DNA of 64,000 bases from Escherichia phage Ec_MI-02, in the sequence record OP856590.1; one strand, 5' to 3'. Below are positions 1 through 38,362 of the stretch, piece by piece (the first letter of the stretch is position 1; every line of letters starts with the position of its first letter). The translations under genes and the position numbers were made by a program. Below the pieces are notes generated by a model, which was not told the origin of the DNA, ran no database searches, and saw only the letters and a list, made by a program, of their open reading frames with translations.

Positions 1-430
<430 letters not shown>

Positions 431-3361: not shown

Positions 3362-3907
3362 TTATATCATACTATTTAAGAGATGTAAACTATTTTTAAT
3401 TTTACAAATTCGTTCAGCTTCTTCAACGGCGGCGGCGATAATGCTTTTAGCTATAGGAGTACTAATACTAGTAGCTTTTACACTTAACACGATTTCTTTA
3501 TCTTTACTAGGCCAACCCCATGATTTTTCACCATGAGTGCCTTTAATTACAGCAGACACCTCAAGTGAGCATCCACTGTCACATGTTTTTACATTAACAA
3601 CCCAAGGGTCACTTTTCTCAACCGATTTCTCAGCCGGTTTATCCCAGTAAATATTAAGAATACGTGGGACATCAAATTTAGCAGGGCAAATCTTAACTGT
3701 AAGACCTTCGCTTTCTAGCCAATTAATAAGAGGGCGTTCATACATGCGGCGATGTGGGCTTTGGACTCGACAAGCCTTGTGCCCATTGCTTGCGGCTTCA
3801 CTAAGCTGTTCTAATACCTGTTTTTGCATTATTGATAAGATATCATCAAAAGATTTTTCGGAAGTTTCATTCAGTTCGGTATAAAGAGACATAACGGTTT
3901 TCCTCAA
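3362..3907 (-). CDS. hypothetical protein
   Basis: 181-aa ORF, no recognised motif. Confidence 0.6.
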   Translation of the reverse strand: MRKTVMSLYTELNETSEKSFDDILSIMQKQVLEQLSEAASNGHKACRVQSPHRRMYERPLINWLESEGLTVKICPAKFDVPRILNIYWDKPAEKSVEKSDPWVVNVKTCDSGCSLEVSAVIKGTHGEKSWGWPSKDKEIVLSVKATSISTPIAKSIIAAAVEEAERICKIKNSLHLLNSMI

Positions 3908-3948
3908 ATTGTAGGCTCATAATATCTCAATCATGAGCCTATGTAAAC

Positions 3949-4212
3949 TTATTTCATATTATTGAAATATTCTTCTGCGATTTCGTCGTTATCGTGGTAA
4001 ACTTTAGAAGACAGTTTAACATAACCTTCTGCTGTGAACATGTTAATCACAACCTTTACAGTATACCACTGTCCGTCTTCATTACCCATTACTGCGTAAG
4101 TTTCAAACATCGGATGGTCAGGACCGATAACTTTAATATCATTCACTGTACGACCGAAATCTTCTGAAACACATTTCATAAAGAAGTTGAACAGTTCGCC
4201 GTAATTATCCAT
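3949..4212 (-). CDS. hypothetical protein (87 aa; track ORF extends to 4266)
   Basis: ATG at 4212 (MDNYGELF...); the track's N-terminal extension would run through a promoter-like element at 4257-4286. Confidence 0.5.
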   Translation of the reverse strand: MDNYGELFNFFMKCVSEDFGRTVNDIKVIGPDHPMFETYAVMGNEDGQWYTVKVVINMFTAEGYVKLSSKVYHDNDEIAEEYFNNMK

Positions 4213-4256
4213 TTCATTCTCCAAGTTGTTTTTCTGTATCAGTAGTTGATAGTTGT

Positions 4257-4286
4257 ATAGTACCATGGAAGAACAGGGATGTAAAT
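4257..4286 (-). promoter_or_regulatory. sigma70/T4-early-like promoter (ATTTAC -35, 18-nt spacer, TACTAT -10)
   Basis: On minus strand: A/T-rich upstream tract, ATTTAC, 18 nt, TACTAT; about 45 nt upstream of the ATG at 4212. Confidence 0.4.
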
Positions 4287-4419
4287 AGTTTTGTGAAAAA
4301 ATTTTTAAAAAGTTTTAGGGAATTCTAGGGAAGGGAGGGGCAATTAAAAGGTAGGATAATATATTATAAAGGGTATAAACTAAATGATGCCTAGAGAGGC
4401 CAAGAAAGGCCTAGATACC

Positions 4420-4444
4420 AAAAACCCCAACCTTTTGGTCGGGG
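4420..4444 (-). terminator. rho-independent terminator
   Basis: Minus RNA ccccgacc-aaaa-ggttgggg followed by UUUUU; directly 3' of the IP-like gene (stop at 4454). Confidence 0.65.
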
Positions 4445-4453
4445 CTAAGAATG

Positions 4454-4927
4454 TTATTTGATTTGTTTAGCAGACCAAATGCGGTCTTTAATAATTTTTT
4501 GGATGTCTTCAACATACTCAAGAGAGTGAACATGCGGATTATCTTTGAAACTATAAGCACGGGCTAGCTTTTGGCCTTCGGTTTTGATTACTAAAAGCTC
4601 TTTAAGGATAGCTTCATATTTAGAGATAATTCCTTTAACGATATTTTTTTCTTGTGCAGCTTTAGGATCTGCTTTAGGAGCAGGTTTACCCGAAGCCTTT
4701 GCAAAAGCAGCGCCAGTAGCAACTAAACTTTTCCAGGCCATACTAACTGCATTTCCCGTAAATCCTTCTGCTTTCATGTCGCGAGCAAATTGGAATCGTG
4801 ATTCGTCAGAAGCATCTTTATAGGAATATTTACCCGCTGCAATGGCTGCTTTTGCGACAGCTTGAATTTCGGTGCTAGATGCTTCATTTAACACCGCTTC
4901 ATTTAAAAATTGAGCATATGATTTCAT
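4454..4927 (-). CDS. internal head protein-like (capsid-targeting sequence at N-terminus)
   Basis: 157 aa; N-terminus MKSYAQFLNEAVLNE resembles the T4 IP targeting sequence (MKTYQEF...E) with LNE|A prohead-protease-type cleavage motifs; late promoter upstream, terminator downstream. Confidence 0.7.
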   Translation of the reverse strand: MKSYAQFLNEAVLNEASSTEIQAVAKAAIAAGKYSYKDASDESRFQFARDMKAEGFTGNAVSMAWKSLVATGAAFAKASGKPAPKADPKAAQEKNIVKGIISKYEAILKELLVIKTEGQKLARAYSFKDNPHVHSLEYVEDIQKIIKDRIWSAKQIK

Positions 4928-4967
4928 CTTATTTCCTGTTTTAATTCGTGGATTTAATATACTACTA

Positions 4968-4975
4968 TATTTATA
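4968..4975 (-). promoter_or_regulatory. T4 late promoter TATAAATA
   Basis: Plus tatttata = TATAAATA on minus, about 41 nt upstream of the ATG at 4927. Confidence 0.55.
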
Positions 4976-4977
4976 CT

Positions 4978-5003
4978 AAAAAGCCCCAACCTTTCGGTCG
5001 GGG
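4978..5003 (-). terminator. rho-independent terminator (GAAA tetraloop) ending the tRNA/stable-RNA transcription unit
   Basis: Minus RNA ccccgacc-gaaa-ggttgggg-c-UUUUU; near-duplicate of the terminator at 4420-4444. Confidence 0.65.
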
Positions 5004-5057
5004 CTAAGCCTTGCGGTAACCTTGTCGGGGTTCCACCTGCTAAGGCAAGTGTTTGTA

Positions 5058-5214
5058 CGAAACGCCGGGATTCGAACCCGGTTATTAAGCAGTTGACGCT
5101 ACTCAATATTTTTAAAAGGCCATATCTCGACCATATCCGAACGTTCCGTCAAAAACGCTACTCGGCTTACGGCAAAGATATTTCCTCGAATCGATAATTC
5201 TGCGCGCCGTTTCA
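5058..5214 (-). ncRNA. candidate tRNA-like stable RNA (compare T4 stable RNA species 1/2)
   Basis: tRNA-like T-arm ccggg-ttcgaat-cccgg followed by a 7-nt strand (cgtttcg) that can pair with tgaaacg about 150 nt upstream; too long for a tRNA; lies between tRNA-Arg and the terminator. Confidence 0.25.
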
Positions 5215-5321
5215 GCTGTGATGTAAGGGGACATTAACAGATCGTAAAGATTTGATAATGTCAGTCCTTACTCAGGGAACATCAGTCCGACGACTTACCG
5301 GTAGCGACCCGGTTTCTTGTT

Positions 5322-5397
5322 TGGTCGAGGCAGTAGGGATCGAACCTACGACCTAGGACTTAGAAGGTCCTTGCTCTTCCTTCTGAGCTATGCCTCG
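5322..5397 (-). tRNA. tRNA-Arg (anticodon TCT)
   Basis: Cloverleaf read by eye on minus strand: acceptor cgaggca/tgcctcg, anticodon loop CTTCTAA, T-arm gtagg-ttcgatc-cctac, encoded CCA. Confidence 0.88.
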
Positions 5398-5401
5398 TAT
5401 T

Positions 5402-5476
5402 TGGCGGACGTGATAGGATTCGAACCTATAACCAATCGCTTAACAGGCGATCGCTCTGCCATTGAGCTACACATCC
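5402..5476 (-). tRNA. tRNA-Asn (anticodon GTT)
   Basis: Acceptor ggatgtg/cacgtcc, anticodon stem-loop atcgc-CTGTTAA-gcgat, T-loop ttcgaat, encoded CCA. Confidence 0.85.
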
Positions 5477-5480
5477 AAAT

Positions 5481-5567
5481 TGGTGGGGAGTGATGGAGTC
5501 GAACCACCCGAGTCGCAATGACAATGGATTTACAGTCCACACCGCTACCTCTACGGGATAACTCCCC
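5481..5567 (-). tRNA. tRNA-Tyr (anticodon GTA), long variable arm
   Basis: Acceptor ggggagt/actcccc, anticodon loop CTGTAAA, long variable arm, T-loop ttcgact, encoded CCA. Confidence 0.82.
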
Positions 5568-5579
5568 TAATTCTTAATT

Positions 5580-5655
5580 TGGTGGCCCTGGGTGGAATTG
5601 AACCACCATCTGGCGATTATGAGTCGCTTGCTTGAACCTTCCAGCTACAGGGCCA
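5580..5655 (-). tRNA. tRNA with CAT anticodon, most likely tRNA-Ile2 (lysidine type), alternatively Met
   Basis: Acceptor ggccctg/cagggcc, anticodon stem-loop agcga-CTCATAA-tcgcc resembling E. coli tRNA-Ile2 (ggcgaCTCATAAtcgct); encoded CCA. Confidence 0.8.
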
Positions 5656-5662
5656 AATTTTC

Positions 5663-6148
5663 TTATTTTATGTAATATTTATTTAAAAACTTTCTAGCTT
5701 GAGTATGGCTAACATTTATAGCGTTTGCATAATTTTTAATAAAACCTCGTTCATCCATATTAAAATTTTCTAATATTTTTAATCGTCTAGTTATCTCATC
5801 TTGACTTAAGGTACTTGCATTATTTTTAGAAATTTTTTCTAAGGACTGTGCCGAGTGTTTTCGACCATTAAAATTAAAATTTTTAGATTTTGGAGGAAAT
5901 CTAGCATTTAATCTCGCATCTTTTGTATTTTGATTATTAGTTGCGCAATATATGTTATTTAATGAATATGGTCCTTTATCGCCGAAACGGCACATGCAGT
6001 ATTCATGACCCTTTCTTCCGCGCTTATCATAATTTCCCGTTGATTTCCACCAATGCAGCCATTCATCAAAAGTTAAATTCCATTCAATGTTTCTACGTAT
6101 AGCAGAATTCCGCTGAGAAATATATTTTGCATAATCTTCTTTCATCAC
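5663..6148 (-). CDS. putative HNH-like (Cys/His-containing) homing-endonuclease-like protein with C-terminal HTH-like tail
   Basis: 161-aa ORF inserted between tRNA-Ser and tRNA-Ile; basic; core GHEYCMCRFGDKGPYSLNNIYCATNNQNTK resembles a degenerate HNH/zinc motif; positional analogy to T4 segB in the tRNA cluster, but no GIY-YIG motif. Confidence 0.5.
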   Translation of the reverse strand: MMKEDYAKYISQRNSAIRRNIEWNLTFDEWLHWWKSTGNYDKRGRKGHEYCMCRFGDKGPYSLNNIYCATNNQNTKDARLNARFPPKSKNFNFNGRKHSAQSLEKISKNNASTLSQDEITRRLKILENFNMDERGFIKNYANAINVSHTQARKFLNKYYIK

Positions 6149-6192
6149 AAATTTCTCTACTTATTCAATACACTGAGCTAAATCAGCAAAAC

Positions 6193-6282
6193 TGGCGGAG
6201 GCGATAGGATTTGAACCTATGAGTCGCCGGAGCGACTGCCGGTTTTCAAGACCGGTGCATTAAACCACTCTGCCACGCCTCC
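6193..6282 (-). tRNA. tRNA-Ser (anticodon TGA), long variable arm
   Basis: Acceptor ggaggcg/cgcctcc, anticodon stem-loop ccggt-CTTGAAA-accgg, variable arm, T-loop ttcaaat, encoded CCA. Confidence 0.9.
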
Positions 6283-6284
6283 AG

Positions 6285-6358
6285 TCTCCGCGGCAGGATT
6301 TGAACCTGCGACATTCTGCTCCCAAAGCAGACGCTCTACCAAACTGAGCTACACGGAG
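6285..6358 (-). tRNA. tRNA-Pro (anticodon TGG)
   Basis: Acceptor ctccgtg/cgcggag, anticodon stem-loop tctgc-TTTGGGA-gcaga, T-arm gcagg-ttcaaat-cctgc. Confidence 0.9.
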
Positions 6359-6368
6359 TAAATTAAAT

Positions 6369-6442
<74 letters not shown>

Positions 6443-6447
6443 AAATT

Positions 6448-6534
6448 TGGTGCGAGAAGTGGGACTCGAACCCACAAGGAAATCATTCCGCAGCATTTTA
6501 AGTGCTGTGCCTTTACCAATTTGACCATTCTCGC
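6448..6534 (-). tRNA. tRNA-Leu (anticodon TAA), long variable arm
   Basis: Acceptor gcgagaa/ttctcgc, anticodon stem-loop cagca-CTTAAAA-tgctg, encoded CCA. Confidence 0.9.
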
Positions 6535-6535
6535 G

Positions 6536-6608
6536 CTGGGAATAAAGGACTCGAACCTTTGCATCCTGGAATCAAAATCCAGTGCCTTACCAACTTGGCT
6601 AATTCCCA
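6536..6608 (-). tRNA. tRNA-Gln (anticodon TTG)
   Basis: Acceptor tgggaat/attccca, anticodon stem-loop ctgga-TTTTGAT-tccag, T-arm aaagg-ttcgagt-ccttt. Confidence 0.9.
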
Positions 6609-7563: not shown

Positions 7564-7591
7564 TTTATTCTCCTCAGTAGTTGATAGGGTA

Positions 7592-7621
7592 ATAGTATCA
7601 CAACTAAAACCCTATGTAAAC
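7592..7621 (-). promoter_or_regulatory. sigma70/T4-early-like promoter (GTTTAC -35, 18-nt spacer, TACTAT -10, A/T-rich upstream)
   Basis: -35, -10 and upstream A/T tract are identical to the copy at 7922-7951; only the 12-nt spacer core differs. Confidence 0.5.
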
Positions 7622-7633
7622 AACTTTGTGAAA

Positions 7634-7891
7634 TTATTTTAAATCTTCTAATCGTTTCTTCATCTTAGAACCATTTTTAGCAATTTCTCCTGCATCTGAG
7701 CATAATGCTAAAAGTGCTTTAACTTTAGTTTGGTCTCCTTTAAAAGATGAAGGATCGACTGCAGCAGCAAGTTCTTTAATACGAGAGAAAAGACGCTCAG
7801 CTTCAGCTAAAGCCATTCCAAGCTTTACTTCCATACCATGAGAAGATTCAGTAATAGTAGTTTTTGTAGCAAACTCTTTGAAAGTTTTCAT
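7634..7891 (-). CDS. ipI: internal head protein I-like (capsid-targeting sequence)
   Basis: 85 aa; N-terminus MKTFKEFATKTTITE|S resembles the T4 IP capsid-targeting sequence with an I-x-E cleavage motif; located next to 57B as ipI is in T4. Confidence 0.7.
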   Translation of the reverse strand: MKTFKEFATKTTITESSHGMEVKLGMALAEAERLFSRIKELAAAVDPSSFKGDQTKVKALLALCSDAGEIAKNGSKMKKRLEDLK

Positions 7892-7921
7892 TTTATTTTC
7901 CTAATTAATTTTGATGAGATA

Positions 7922-7951
7922 ATAGTATCACTACCTCATCAGCATGTAAAC
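7922..7951 (-). promoter_or_regulatory. sigma70/T4-early-like promoter upstream of the ipI-like gene
   Basis: GTTTAC, 18-nt spacer, TACTAT; the upstream A/T-rich tract overlaps the last codons and stop of 57B. Confidence 0.5.
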
Positions 7952-7963
7952 AACTTTGTGAAA

Positions 7964-8660
<697 letters not shown>

Positions 8661-36459: not shown

Positions 36460-36884
36460 TGCTTCTGATCCCTGAAACTCATGAATTAGTTCTCGAGAAT
36501 GTCGAAGCACTTATTCCTGAAGCACAGGGTCGCTTTGACGAATTGTCTTCTGCTTTAAATAAAGACGATATAAATACAATTGTCGAGAATATGCTTGATG
36601 ATGAAACTGATTTAGCGATTGCATTAGCTTCTATTAATGAAGATATGCCGCTAAATGAATTCATCGTTAAACATGTTTCTGCTCGTGGTGAAATTACACG
36701 TACCAAAGACCGCAAAACGCGTGAACGTAATGCATTTCAAACCACCGGGCTGTCTAAAGCAAAACGTAGACAAATTGCTCGCAAAGCTACCAAAACGAAG
36801 ATTGCCAACCCAGCAGGTCAATCTCGTGCTCAGCGTAAGCGTAAAAAAGCTCTTAAACGCCGTAAAGCATTAGGATTAAGCTAA
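36459..36884 (+). CDS. 68: prohead core protein gp68
   Basis: 141 aa; basic C-terminus; TAATG junctions on both sides. Confidence 0.9.
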
Positions 36885-37522
36885 TGAATGAACCCCAATT
36901 ACTAATTGAAACTTGGGGTCAACCTGGCGAAATTATTGATGGTGTGCCAATGCTTGAATCTCATGATGGAAAAGACCTAGGTTTAAAACCTGGTTTATAC
37001 ATCGAAGGAATATTCATGCAAGCGGAAGTCGTCAATAGAAATAAACGTCTTTATCCAAAACGCATATTAGAAAAAGCGGTAAAAGACTATATCAATGAGC
37101 AAGTTTTAACTAAACAAGCTCTCGGAGAATTAAATCATCCTCCACGCGCTAATGTTGACCCGATGCAAGCCGCTATCATTATAGAAGATATGTGGTGGAA
37201 AGGAAATGACGTATACGGACGAGCTCGTGTTATTGAAGGTGACCATGGTCCTGGAGATAAATTAGCAGCTAATATTCGTGCCGGATGGATTCCAGGAGTT
37301 TCTTCTCGTGGATTAGGTTCATTGACTGACACAAATAAAGGTTATCGTATCGTAAACGAAGGATTCAAATTAACTGTAGGTGTTGATGCAGTATGGGGTC
37401 CAAGTGCTCCAGATGCATGGGTAACTCCTAAGGAAATTACCGAATCACAGACGGCGGAAGCCGATACAAGTGCCGATGACGCCTATATGGCTCTCGCAGA
37501 GGCCATGAAAAAAGCGTTATAA
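36884..37522 (+). CDS. 21: prohead core scaffold / protease gp21
   Basis: 212 aa, same length as T4 gp21. Confidence 0.93.
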   Translation: MNEPQLLIETWGQPGEIIDGVPMLESHDGKDLGLKPGLYIEGIFMQAEVVNRNKRLYPKRILEKAVKDYINEQVLTKQALGELNHPPRANVDPMQAAIIIEDMWWKGNDVYGRARVIEGDHGPGDKLAANIRAGWIPGVSSRGLGSLTDTNKGYRIVNEGFKLTVGVDAVWGPSAPDAWVTPKEITESQTAEADTSADDAYMALAEAMKKAL

Positions 37523-37552: not shown

Positions 37553-38362
37553 ATGCTTAAAGAACAACTGATTGCTGAAGCGCAAAAAATTGATGCTTCC
37601 GTTGCTCTTGATAGTATTTTCGAATCAGTTAATATTTCTCCGGAAGCAAAAGAAACTTTCGGCACTGTATTCGAAGCTACCGTCAAGCAGCACGCCGTTA
37701 AATTAGCTGAATCTCATATCGCTAAAATTGCTGAAAAAGCAGAAGAAGAAGTAGAAAAAAATAAAGAAGAAGCCGAAGAAAAAGCTGAGAAGAAAATTGC
37801 TGAGCAAGCTTCTAAATTCATCGACCATCTTGCAAAAGAATGGCTCGCTGAAAATAAATTAGCAGTTGATAAAGGCATCAAAGCCGAACTGTTTGAATCC
37901 ATGCTAGGTGGATTAAAAGAGCTCTTTGTTGAACACAACGTTGTTGTTCCAGAAGAATCAGTTGATGTTGTAGCTGAAATGGAAGAAGAGCTGCAAGAAC
38001 ATAAAGAAGAATCAGCTCGTCTGTTCGAAGAACTCAATATGCGCGACGCATATATCAATTATGTGCAGCGTGAAGTGGCATTGAGCGAAAGTACTAAAGA
38101 TCTGACTGAGTCTCAAAAAGAAAAAGTCTCTGCTCTGGTCGAAGGTATGGATTATTCAGATGCATTCTCAAGTAAATTGAGTGCCATCGTAGAAATGGTG
38201 AAGAAGTCTAATAAAGATGAAAGCACTATTACTGAGGGTATAAATACTCCTGATACTGAAGCAGCCGGACTGAATTTCGTCACTGAAGCTGTAGAAGATA
38301 AAGCTGCACCTGGTGCAGAAGATATTGTAAGTGTATATGCGAAAGTCGCATCTCGTTTCTAA
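37553..38362 (+). CDS. 22: prohead core scaffold protein gp22
   Basis: 269 aa, same length as T4 gp22; acidic coiled coil. Confidence 0.93.
   Translation: MLKEQLIAEAQKIDASVALDSIFESVNISPEAKETFGTVFEATVKQHAVKLAESHIAKIAEKAEEEVEKNKEEAEEKAEKKIAEQASKFIDHLAKEWLAENKLAVDKGIKAELFESMLGGLKELFVEHNVVVPEESVDVVAEMEEELQEHKEESARLFEELNMRDAYINYVQREVALSESTKDLTESQKEKVSALVEGMDYSDAFSSKLSAIVEMVKKSNKDESTITEGINTPDTEAAGLNFVTEAVEDKAAPGAEDIVSVYAKVASRF
38239..38246 (+). promoter_or_regulatory. T4 late promoter TATAAATA for gene 23, embedded in gene 22 coding sequence
   Basis: Exact TATAAATA 135 nt upstream of the gene 23 ATG, inside the 3' end of gene 22. Confidence 0.5.

Follow-up and report, generated by a model that had tools for sequence, protein, structure and literature searches.

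A late-promoter gene cassette between rnaC and e.8 of T4-like phages encodes a putative internal protein

Between e.8 and rnaC, where T4 has no gene, Escherichia phage Ec_MI-02 (OP856590.1) carries one for a 157-amino-acid (aa) protein, which raises the question of what this product does. The source genome belongs to a Tequatrovirus (T4-like), and the window, the whole stretch of 64,000 nucleotides (nt) that was analyzed, has the gene order nudE, e.2 to e.8, the 157-aa open reading frame (ORF), rnaC/rnaD, a tRNA cluster, trna.2 to trna.4, the Ip5 gene, 57B, 57A, 1, 3, 2, 4, 53, 5, and onward through the head genes. The internal-protein-like coding sequence (CDS; 4454..4927, minus strand) belongs to the RB32ORF133c family (phrog_2280) and encodes a precursor with a pI of 9.46 that begins MKSYAQFLNEAVLNEASS; its GenBank label is hypothetical (RB32ORF133c). 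We consider it probable that this is an unlabelled T-even internal protein (Ip), which would be packaged, injected, and most probably used to neutralize host defense.

The upstream flank of the insertion site is marked by a homologue of rnaC (species 1 RNA; 5056..5194, minus strand) with 98.6% identity to the annotated T4 rnaC. An Rfam search of window positions 4300 to 5400 gave tRNA-Arg as the sole match; rnaC and rnaD have no Rfam entries. The 801 bases around the 157-aa gene match 700 phage records, with query coverage of at least 80% at one place in 452 of the 700, and the best identities (95 to 99%) are to phages of Escherichia, Shigella, Yersinia, and Salmonella. The nine tRNA genes at 5322 to 6608 (minus strand; Arg, Asn, Tyr, Met, Ser, Pro, Gly, Leu, and Gln) differ in both repertoire and number from the eight of T4 (Arg, Ile, Thr, Ser, Pro, Gly, Leu, and Gln). 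The cluster is split, where T4 carries the homing endonuclease gene segB, by a 161-aa ORF (5663 to 6148, minus strand) of phrog_16521, a family of unknown function; the ORF has no Pfam match, and phrog_16521 also has a match in a Klebsiella phage, to the C-terminal portion of a homing-endonuclease-like protein. The T4 e.7 position is occupied by a 181-aa ORF (3362 to 3907, minus strand; phrog_6869), and RB32ORF130c, the RB32 ORF at that position, is annotated as “similar to RB69ORF146c, replaces e.7”.

The ORF at 4454 to 4927 is a genuine gene, and purifying selection on it is strong. Its dN/dS is 0.05 to 0.14, with dS up to saturation, in comparisons with RB32, fD1, VEc20, and two Mosigvirus genomes. 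The protein was found by tblastn in 511 phage records, and it matches phrog_2280 over its full length (7e-61). Searching 1.84 billion representative proteins with a profile returned 13 relatives, all of one family and with other genera included. An antisense ORF (4584 to 4823, plus strand) was taken as a shadow, lying wholly within the selected minus-strand CDS.

Public records label the family hypothetical, with the exception of one UniRef entry from Klebsiella phage KPKp (“Internal head protein”). The annotators of RB32 named Ip4, Ip5, Ip7, and Ip9 but kept RB32ORF133c hypothetical, with the remark “34 bp imperfect direct repeat”. Literature searches by accession or locus tag returned no paper on the gene, and those by leader-peptide strings returned one T4 engineering paper and nothing else; Ips are not discussed in the Petrov 2010 review, and the fPS-2/65/90 paper contains no proteomics. 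Two variable Ip loci and >30 Ip variants are mentioned, citing Comeau 2007, by Arbiol 2010 (PMC2839356), and the phrog_2280 family may already be among these variants. One homologue lies in the 261-kb record of a Straboviridae phage, Klebsiella phage vB_Kpn_AM_K6 (PP355768.1, L006). Partial tail sheath, tail tube, and SbcD-like fragments are intermingled around this homologue, pointing to a chimeric or misassembled record.

The original prediction held that the product starts with a leader resembling the capsid-targeting sequence of T4 internal proteins and containing two LNE↓A motifs (arrows denote cleavage sites), and both claims are borne out. Codons 1 to 15 (MKSYAQFLNE↓AVLNE↓A; 4883..4927, minus strand) form a predicted capsid-targeting sequence with two L-x-E prohead protease sites, L-N-E↓A being present at residues 8 to 11 and again at residues 13 to 16. 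At the DNA level the second motif is a 15-bp tandem duplication (TTAAATGAAGCGGTG / TTAAATGAAGCATCT). The duplication is missing from close alleles, P0029 among them, which have a single site, and the leaders of other alleles have 9 to 14 residues. In T4 and RB32 records, the corresponding leaders are MKTYQEFIAE↓A in IPII and IPIII, MKTYQEFITE↓A in Ip4, MKTYQEFISE↓A in Ip9, and MKTFKEFINE↓A in Ip7, all of which the 157-aa protein matches, and MKTFKEF...ITE↓A in IPI and MKTFKEF...ITE↓S in Ip5. According to a review (PMC9026906), mutagenesis of IPIII mapped targeting mainly to residues 4 and 7 and processing to residues 8 and 10. MKSYAQFLNE holds all four mapped positions, with Y4 and F7 for targeting and L8 and E10 for processing.

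Conservation of the leader extends throughout the family. M1, F7, and the Glu that precedes the mature N terminus (E15, P1) are invariant in 7 to 9 aligned homologues, down to 39% identity. Homologue leaders include MKSYAQFLNE↓AS, MKTYAQFLMTE↓AS, MKSYAEFLTE↓QS, MLEYSEFLKELFCE↓AS, and MKFKEFLAE↓AS, as well as MLKFNEFLAE↓G, MINFSDFLNE↓G, MKSFSSFLNE↓G, and MISFNEFVDGNLITE↓S. All 13 family members from the profile search have the leader start M-x-x-[F/Y]-x-x-F-[L/V] and an [L/I/F]-x-E site at the leader end. Leader length varies by indels (9 to 15 aa) and the protein body diverges, with the mature N terminus E↓AS.SDV retained; in the leader itself, dS is high and dN is low. Among the 1089 candidate start sites in the window, the strict pattern ^MK[ST][YF].[EQ]F[ILV].E was matched by the 157-aa ORF only, with no match in 100 shuffled windows, and a looser leader pattern added solely the neighboring Ip5 gene (7634 to 7891).

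Genes for the machinery that would act on such a leader are present in the same window. The gp21 prohead core protease (36884..37522, plus strand; Pfam Peptidase_S77, E = 1.5e-111) is predicted to remove the leader in trans, and gp22, the scaffolding core protein (37553..38362, plus strand; Pfam T4_CASP, E = 9.5e-90), forms the core to which capsid-targeting leaders direct cargo (PMC9026906). The genome also encodes gp67, and the phage's own gp23 and gp24 carry the cleavage sites FLTE↓A and LRE↓S, respectively. An internal L-K-E at residue 108 of the 157-aa protein could be another protease site.

The predicted mature protein (residues 16 to 157; 4457..4882, minus strand) has a mass of 15.5 kDa and a pI of 9.59. 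In an AF2 model (mean pLDDT of 73), it consists of a helical N-terminal domain (residues ∼18 to 71), a basic Pro/Lys linker (76 to 87), and a C-terminal helical hairpin (88 to 154); pLDDT is <50 for the leader, compared to 70 to 89 for most of the body. When alleles of Tequatrovirus and Mosigvirus are compared, dN is 0.2 to 0.36 in the N-terminal domain and 0.03 to 0.045 in the C-terminal half. The contrast reflects differential constraint, because dS is similar (∼1 or more) in both parts. Recent recombination as the source of C-terminal conservation is ruled out by the dS of ∼1 there, and the cause is constraint. The N-terminal domain is the part still recognizable at longer range. With the 157-aa protein, Pfam gave nothing above noise and PADLOC gave no match; with the mature protein, a PDB sequence-profile search gave no match, the best Foldseek E value against PDB was 2.6, and Foldseek against BFVD gave no matches outside the protein's own family. 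The mature part therefore has no similarity to known anti-defense proteins or solved structures that was detectable by these sequence and fold searches.

The original prediction also described the gene as a self-contained unit with its own late promoter and terminator, and this description stands, the unit being a promoter-gene-terminator insertion relative to T4. An exact T4-type late promoter motif, TATAAATA, lies where it had been placed (4968..4975, minus strand), 40 nt upstream of the ATG, and a Shine-Dalgarno sequence, AGGAAA, can be read at 4932..4937 (minus strand). The window contains 24 copies of TATAAATA, compared to 9.6 ± 3.0 expected, and 24 was reached in 0 of 100 shuffles. Downstream, a hairpin followed by UUUUU is present as claimed, although its coordinates (4420 to 4444) require correction: the stem occupies 4423 to 4446 (10 bp, G+C-rich, loop of 4, −17.1 kcal/mol, z of −3.3). 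This terminator-like stem-loop is the gene's own, and the repeat copy to which it belongs (4420..4449, minus strand) forms the right cassette boundary. Overlooked in the original prediction was a near-identical hairpin directly upstream of the promoter (stem at 4982 to 5005, −20.3 kcal/mol), within a repeat copy (4979..5008, minus strand) that forms the left cassette boundary and closes the tRNA-rnaD-rnaC unit with a terminator-like stem-loop. Together the two hairpins constitute a 30-nt direct repeat, 93% identical, with the copies 559 bp apart. With a late promoter and hairpins on both sides, the 157-aa gene is therefore predicted to be a late-only, insulated unit, and this timing fits prohead assembly.

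Upstream of A-type genes (the 157-aa gene, carried by cassette A, and its homologues), TATAAATA directly after a hairpin is kept in Tequatrovirus, in a Klebsiella phage whose protein is 42% identical, and in Yersinia phage fHe-Yen9-01; Mosigvirus alleles carry AATAAATA in its place. TATAAATA is absent upstream of all seven classic ip genes examined (ipI, ipII, ipIII, and those for Ip4, Ip5, Ip7, and Ip9), each of which has an upstream σ70-like promoter, TTTAC(A/T)-N17-TA(C/T)(T/A)AT, with an embedded hairpin. Elsewhere in the window, two exact TATAAATA motifs (408 to 415 and 421 to 428, minus strand) lie 13 nt apart just downstream of nudE and face a gene that runs off the window start and is, by synteny, the lysozyme gene e.

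Alignment with T4 defines the insertion. In the 284-nt T4 spacer, bases 1 to 83 align to window positions 5055 to 4973 and bases 49 to 284 to positions 4448 to 4213, with a 35-nt overlap; an insertion of 559 bp is thus present in the window, with a hairpin segment (30 to 35 nt) duplicated at its ends. The locus exists in four states. It is empty (span of ∼243 bp) in T4, PST, and SHFML-11; carries cassette A (∼800 bp) in the source window, RB32, AR1, and fD1; carries cassettes A and B (∼1490 bp) in pSs-1 and many others; and carries B only (∼910 to 930 bp) in HY03 and in RB69, where B is frameshifted.

Cassette B occupies the same rnaC-e.8 site and encodes a protein of 187 aa (MKTYAEFLTE↓AAKLP...) that occurs in 165 phage records. 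Its gene (pSs-1 gp150/RB14ORF136/RB69ORF148c-149c) lies at 2273 to 2836 in L003 (pSs-1) and at 814 to 1376 in L007 (RB69), and in the RB69 reference sequence a frameshift splits it into ORF149c and ORF148c. Pairwise BLAST of mature A against mature B detected no similarity. The B protein matches phrog_2280 end to end (2e-53), as does A, and the two are therefore diverged paralogues. They share the locus, the leader type, and a layout of leader, N-terminal domain, basic linker, and helical C-terminal domain; cassette B differs in its upstream motif, AATAAATA, and in its terminator hairpin. In phage genomes that are otherwise intact, both cassette genes repeatedly appear as truncated or frameshifted alleles (P0006, P0008, P0009, P0018, P0033, P0035, P0049, P0069, P0073, and P0077). 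This pattern is compatible with dispensability under fluctuating selection or with sequencing errors at the A-run in AAAAAAATATC.

The equivalent region of fHe-Yen9-01 (L011) contains three consecutive leader-bearing ORFs: one of 52 aa (MKTYIEFINE↓I; 2700 to 2858), a phrog_2280 member of 189 aa (MLQYNEFLKESLISE↓A; 3422 to 3991), and an A-type homologue of 178 aa, also of phrog_2280 (4001 to 4537). The phrog_2280 pair is separated by 10 nt and lies behind a hairpin and TATAAATA. This trio suggests a putative Ip cluster in a distant genus.

How far does the gene resemble known Ip genes? With T4 IPII and IPIII and with Ip4, Ip7, and Ip9 of RB32, T2, and K3, it shares a 10-residue leader of the type MK(T/S)Y.(E/Q)F(I/L).E↓A. 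Like them, it encodes a small, basic, nonessential protein, shows presence/absence polymorphism among close relatives, is a cassette bounded by repeated regulatory elements, and has a mature part unrelated to other Ips. It differs from them in having a canonical late promoter, rather than a σ70-like promoter with an embedded hairpin, and a duplicated cleavage site in its leader. Its locus is also different: recognized Ip loci lie next to 57B (ipI) or between denV and e (ipII/ipIII), and the 157-aa gene is outside both. IPI and Ip5, the latter encoded in the same genome, are the same kind of protein, with MKTFKEF leaders ending in ITE↓S or ITE↓A; however, these leaders are 15 to 19 aa long, their genes lie at the ipI locus between 69-nt promoter/stem-loop repeats, and for IPI both the target (GmrSD of strain CT596) and the structure have been established. 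The Ip5 gene of the window (7634 to 7891, minus strand; 85 aa, identical to RB32 Ip5; phrog_3499, “internal head protein”) lies between two such repeats (7581 to 7649 and 7911 to 7979), 83% identical, each containing TTTACA-N17-TACTAT with an embedded hairpin. Cassettes of the ipI locus classically have this arrangement, and a weaker third copy of the repeat lies upstream of e.8 (4246 to 4314).

The insertion also resembles the shuffling cassettes known as promoter-early stem-loop (PeSL) cassettes (Arbiol 2010, PMC2839356; Comeau 2014, PMC4122927). Both comprise a single gene with its own promoter and terminator, flanked by stem-loop repeats, and both leave one repeat element at the empty site in relatives. 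Recombination between the repeats is therefore implied. Unlike in PeSL cassettes, the repeat at rnaC-e.8 is a plain intrinsic-terminator hairpin without a promoter, and the promoter is the gp55-dependent late TATAAATA, not σ70-like and early.

The analogy with T4 Ips also bears on function. T4 Ip1, Ip2, and Ip3 each inhibit a distinct GmrSD type IV restriction enzyme; ip4 to ip10 were tested too and had no reproducible partner among the GmrSD variants tried, and the authors describe two Ip loci (PMC12373910). The 157-aa family is not among the Ips tested (ip1 to ip10) in that study.

Virion data are available for one homologue. The protein g140 of fD1 (98% identical) was found by LC-MS/MS in virion preparations and listed as particle-associated at the strict threshold, from impure preparations and with no N-terminal peptide reported. 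The same preparations held 672 host proteins, DenV, lysozyme, and NudE, and 113 to 137 of 277 phage proteins were called particle-associated. Because of this impurity, the detection mainly proves expression and is weakly informative on packaging.

Three other accounts of the gene were weighed. That it is merely a chance ORF in a regulatory intergenic insertion is refuted and has practically no probability: the uniform “hypothetical protein” labels, and nothing else, speak for it, whereas the dN/dS at saturated dS and the detection of fD1 peptides rule it out, and the protein is encoded in hundreds of phage records, with profile homologues in other genera. A late cytoplasmic protein that is never packaged, its leader-like N terminus being a nonfunctional relic of descent from or recombination with ip genes, is improbable, though much less so. 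Locus and promoter type are indeed unlike those of classic ip genes, and the fD1 proteomics was not stringent. A relic would decay, however, and here the critical leader residues and the P1 Glu are kept across genera even though identity in the body falls to 39%; the low dN at high dS in the leader and the predicted strictly late expression, which suits prohead assembly, also argue against it.

Somewhat better placed than a cytoplasmic protein, but still unlikely, is a packaged internal protein with a structural job, either in core or head assembly or in neutralizing or organizing DNA, and with no specific anti-defense target. The protein is basic (pI of 9.5) with a Lys/Pro-rich linker, T4 IPIII mutants assemble heads more slowly and have a smaller burst (PMC9026906), and the low dN of the C-terminal half at a dS of ∼1 points more to a conserved phage-internal partner than to an arms race. 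Against this, T4 and many relatives have normal heads without the gene, frameshifted alleles are common, and all three T4 Ips now have defense targets. An Ip that is packaged, injected, and directed against host defense therefore remains the preferred reading. Packaging and processing of the 157-aa protein are likely on the strength of its leader, and from the behavior of known Ips we infer injection and a probable anti-defense role, the latter now with more reason, given the reported inhibition of GmrSD enzymes by all three T4 Ips (PMC12373910).

The preferred reading predicts the following course of events. The gene would be transcribed only late, from its own TATAAATA, with the upstream hairpin insulating it from the tRNA/rnaC unit and its own hairpin insulating the downstream e.8. 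The leader of 10 to 15 residues would bring the precursor into the prohead's gp22 scaffolding core, where gp21 may cut after Glu10 and/or Glu15 to give a basic, 15.5-kDa, two-domain helical protein. The processed protein would stay in the head with the DNA and be injected at the next infection, and there it most probably would neutralize a host defense; by analogy with Ip1 to Ip3, the likeliest target would be a variant modification-dependent (GmrSD-type) nuclease. The 559-bp cassette would carry the gene from one T4-like genome to another, its duplicated terminator hairpins serving as the sites of recombination.

A bolder proposal, which we regard as conceivable rather than probable, is that rnaC-e.8 is a third, unrecognized Ip hotspot, organized unlike the two known loci, where late-promoter cassettes are exchanged via terminator hairpins. 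Under this proposal, the phrog_2280 proteins A and B would be injected and would inhibit a defense other than the GmrSD variants matched by Ip1 to Ip3, with the rapidly changing N-terminal domain conferring target specificity and the conserved C-terminal hairpin a common function.

The 157-aa gene is best described as belonging to a two-paralogue family (phrog_2280) at a third cassette site with a late-promoter/terminator architecture. The result is incremental, in that it extends a known class of proteins and a known theme of cassette shuffling and invokes no new mechanism. Internal proteins that are injected act in the cell before any other phage protein. The phrog_2280 family occurs in ∼500 sequenced T4-like phages employed for therapy and biocontrol, where it is almost everywhere labelled hypothetical. 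A correct label adds two candidates, the 157-aa gene and its paralogue B, against orphan defense systems, and T4, which naturally lacks both genes, offers a ready-made recipient.
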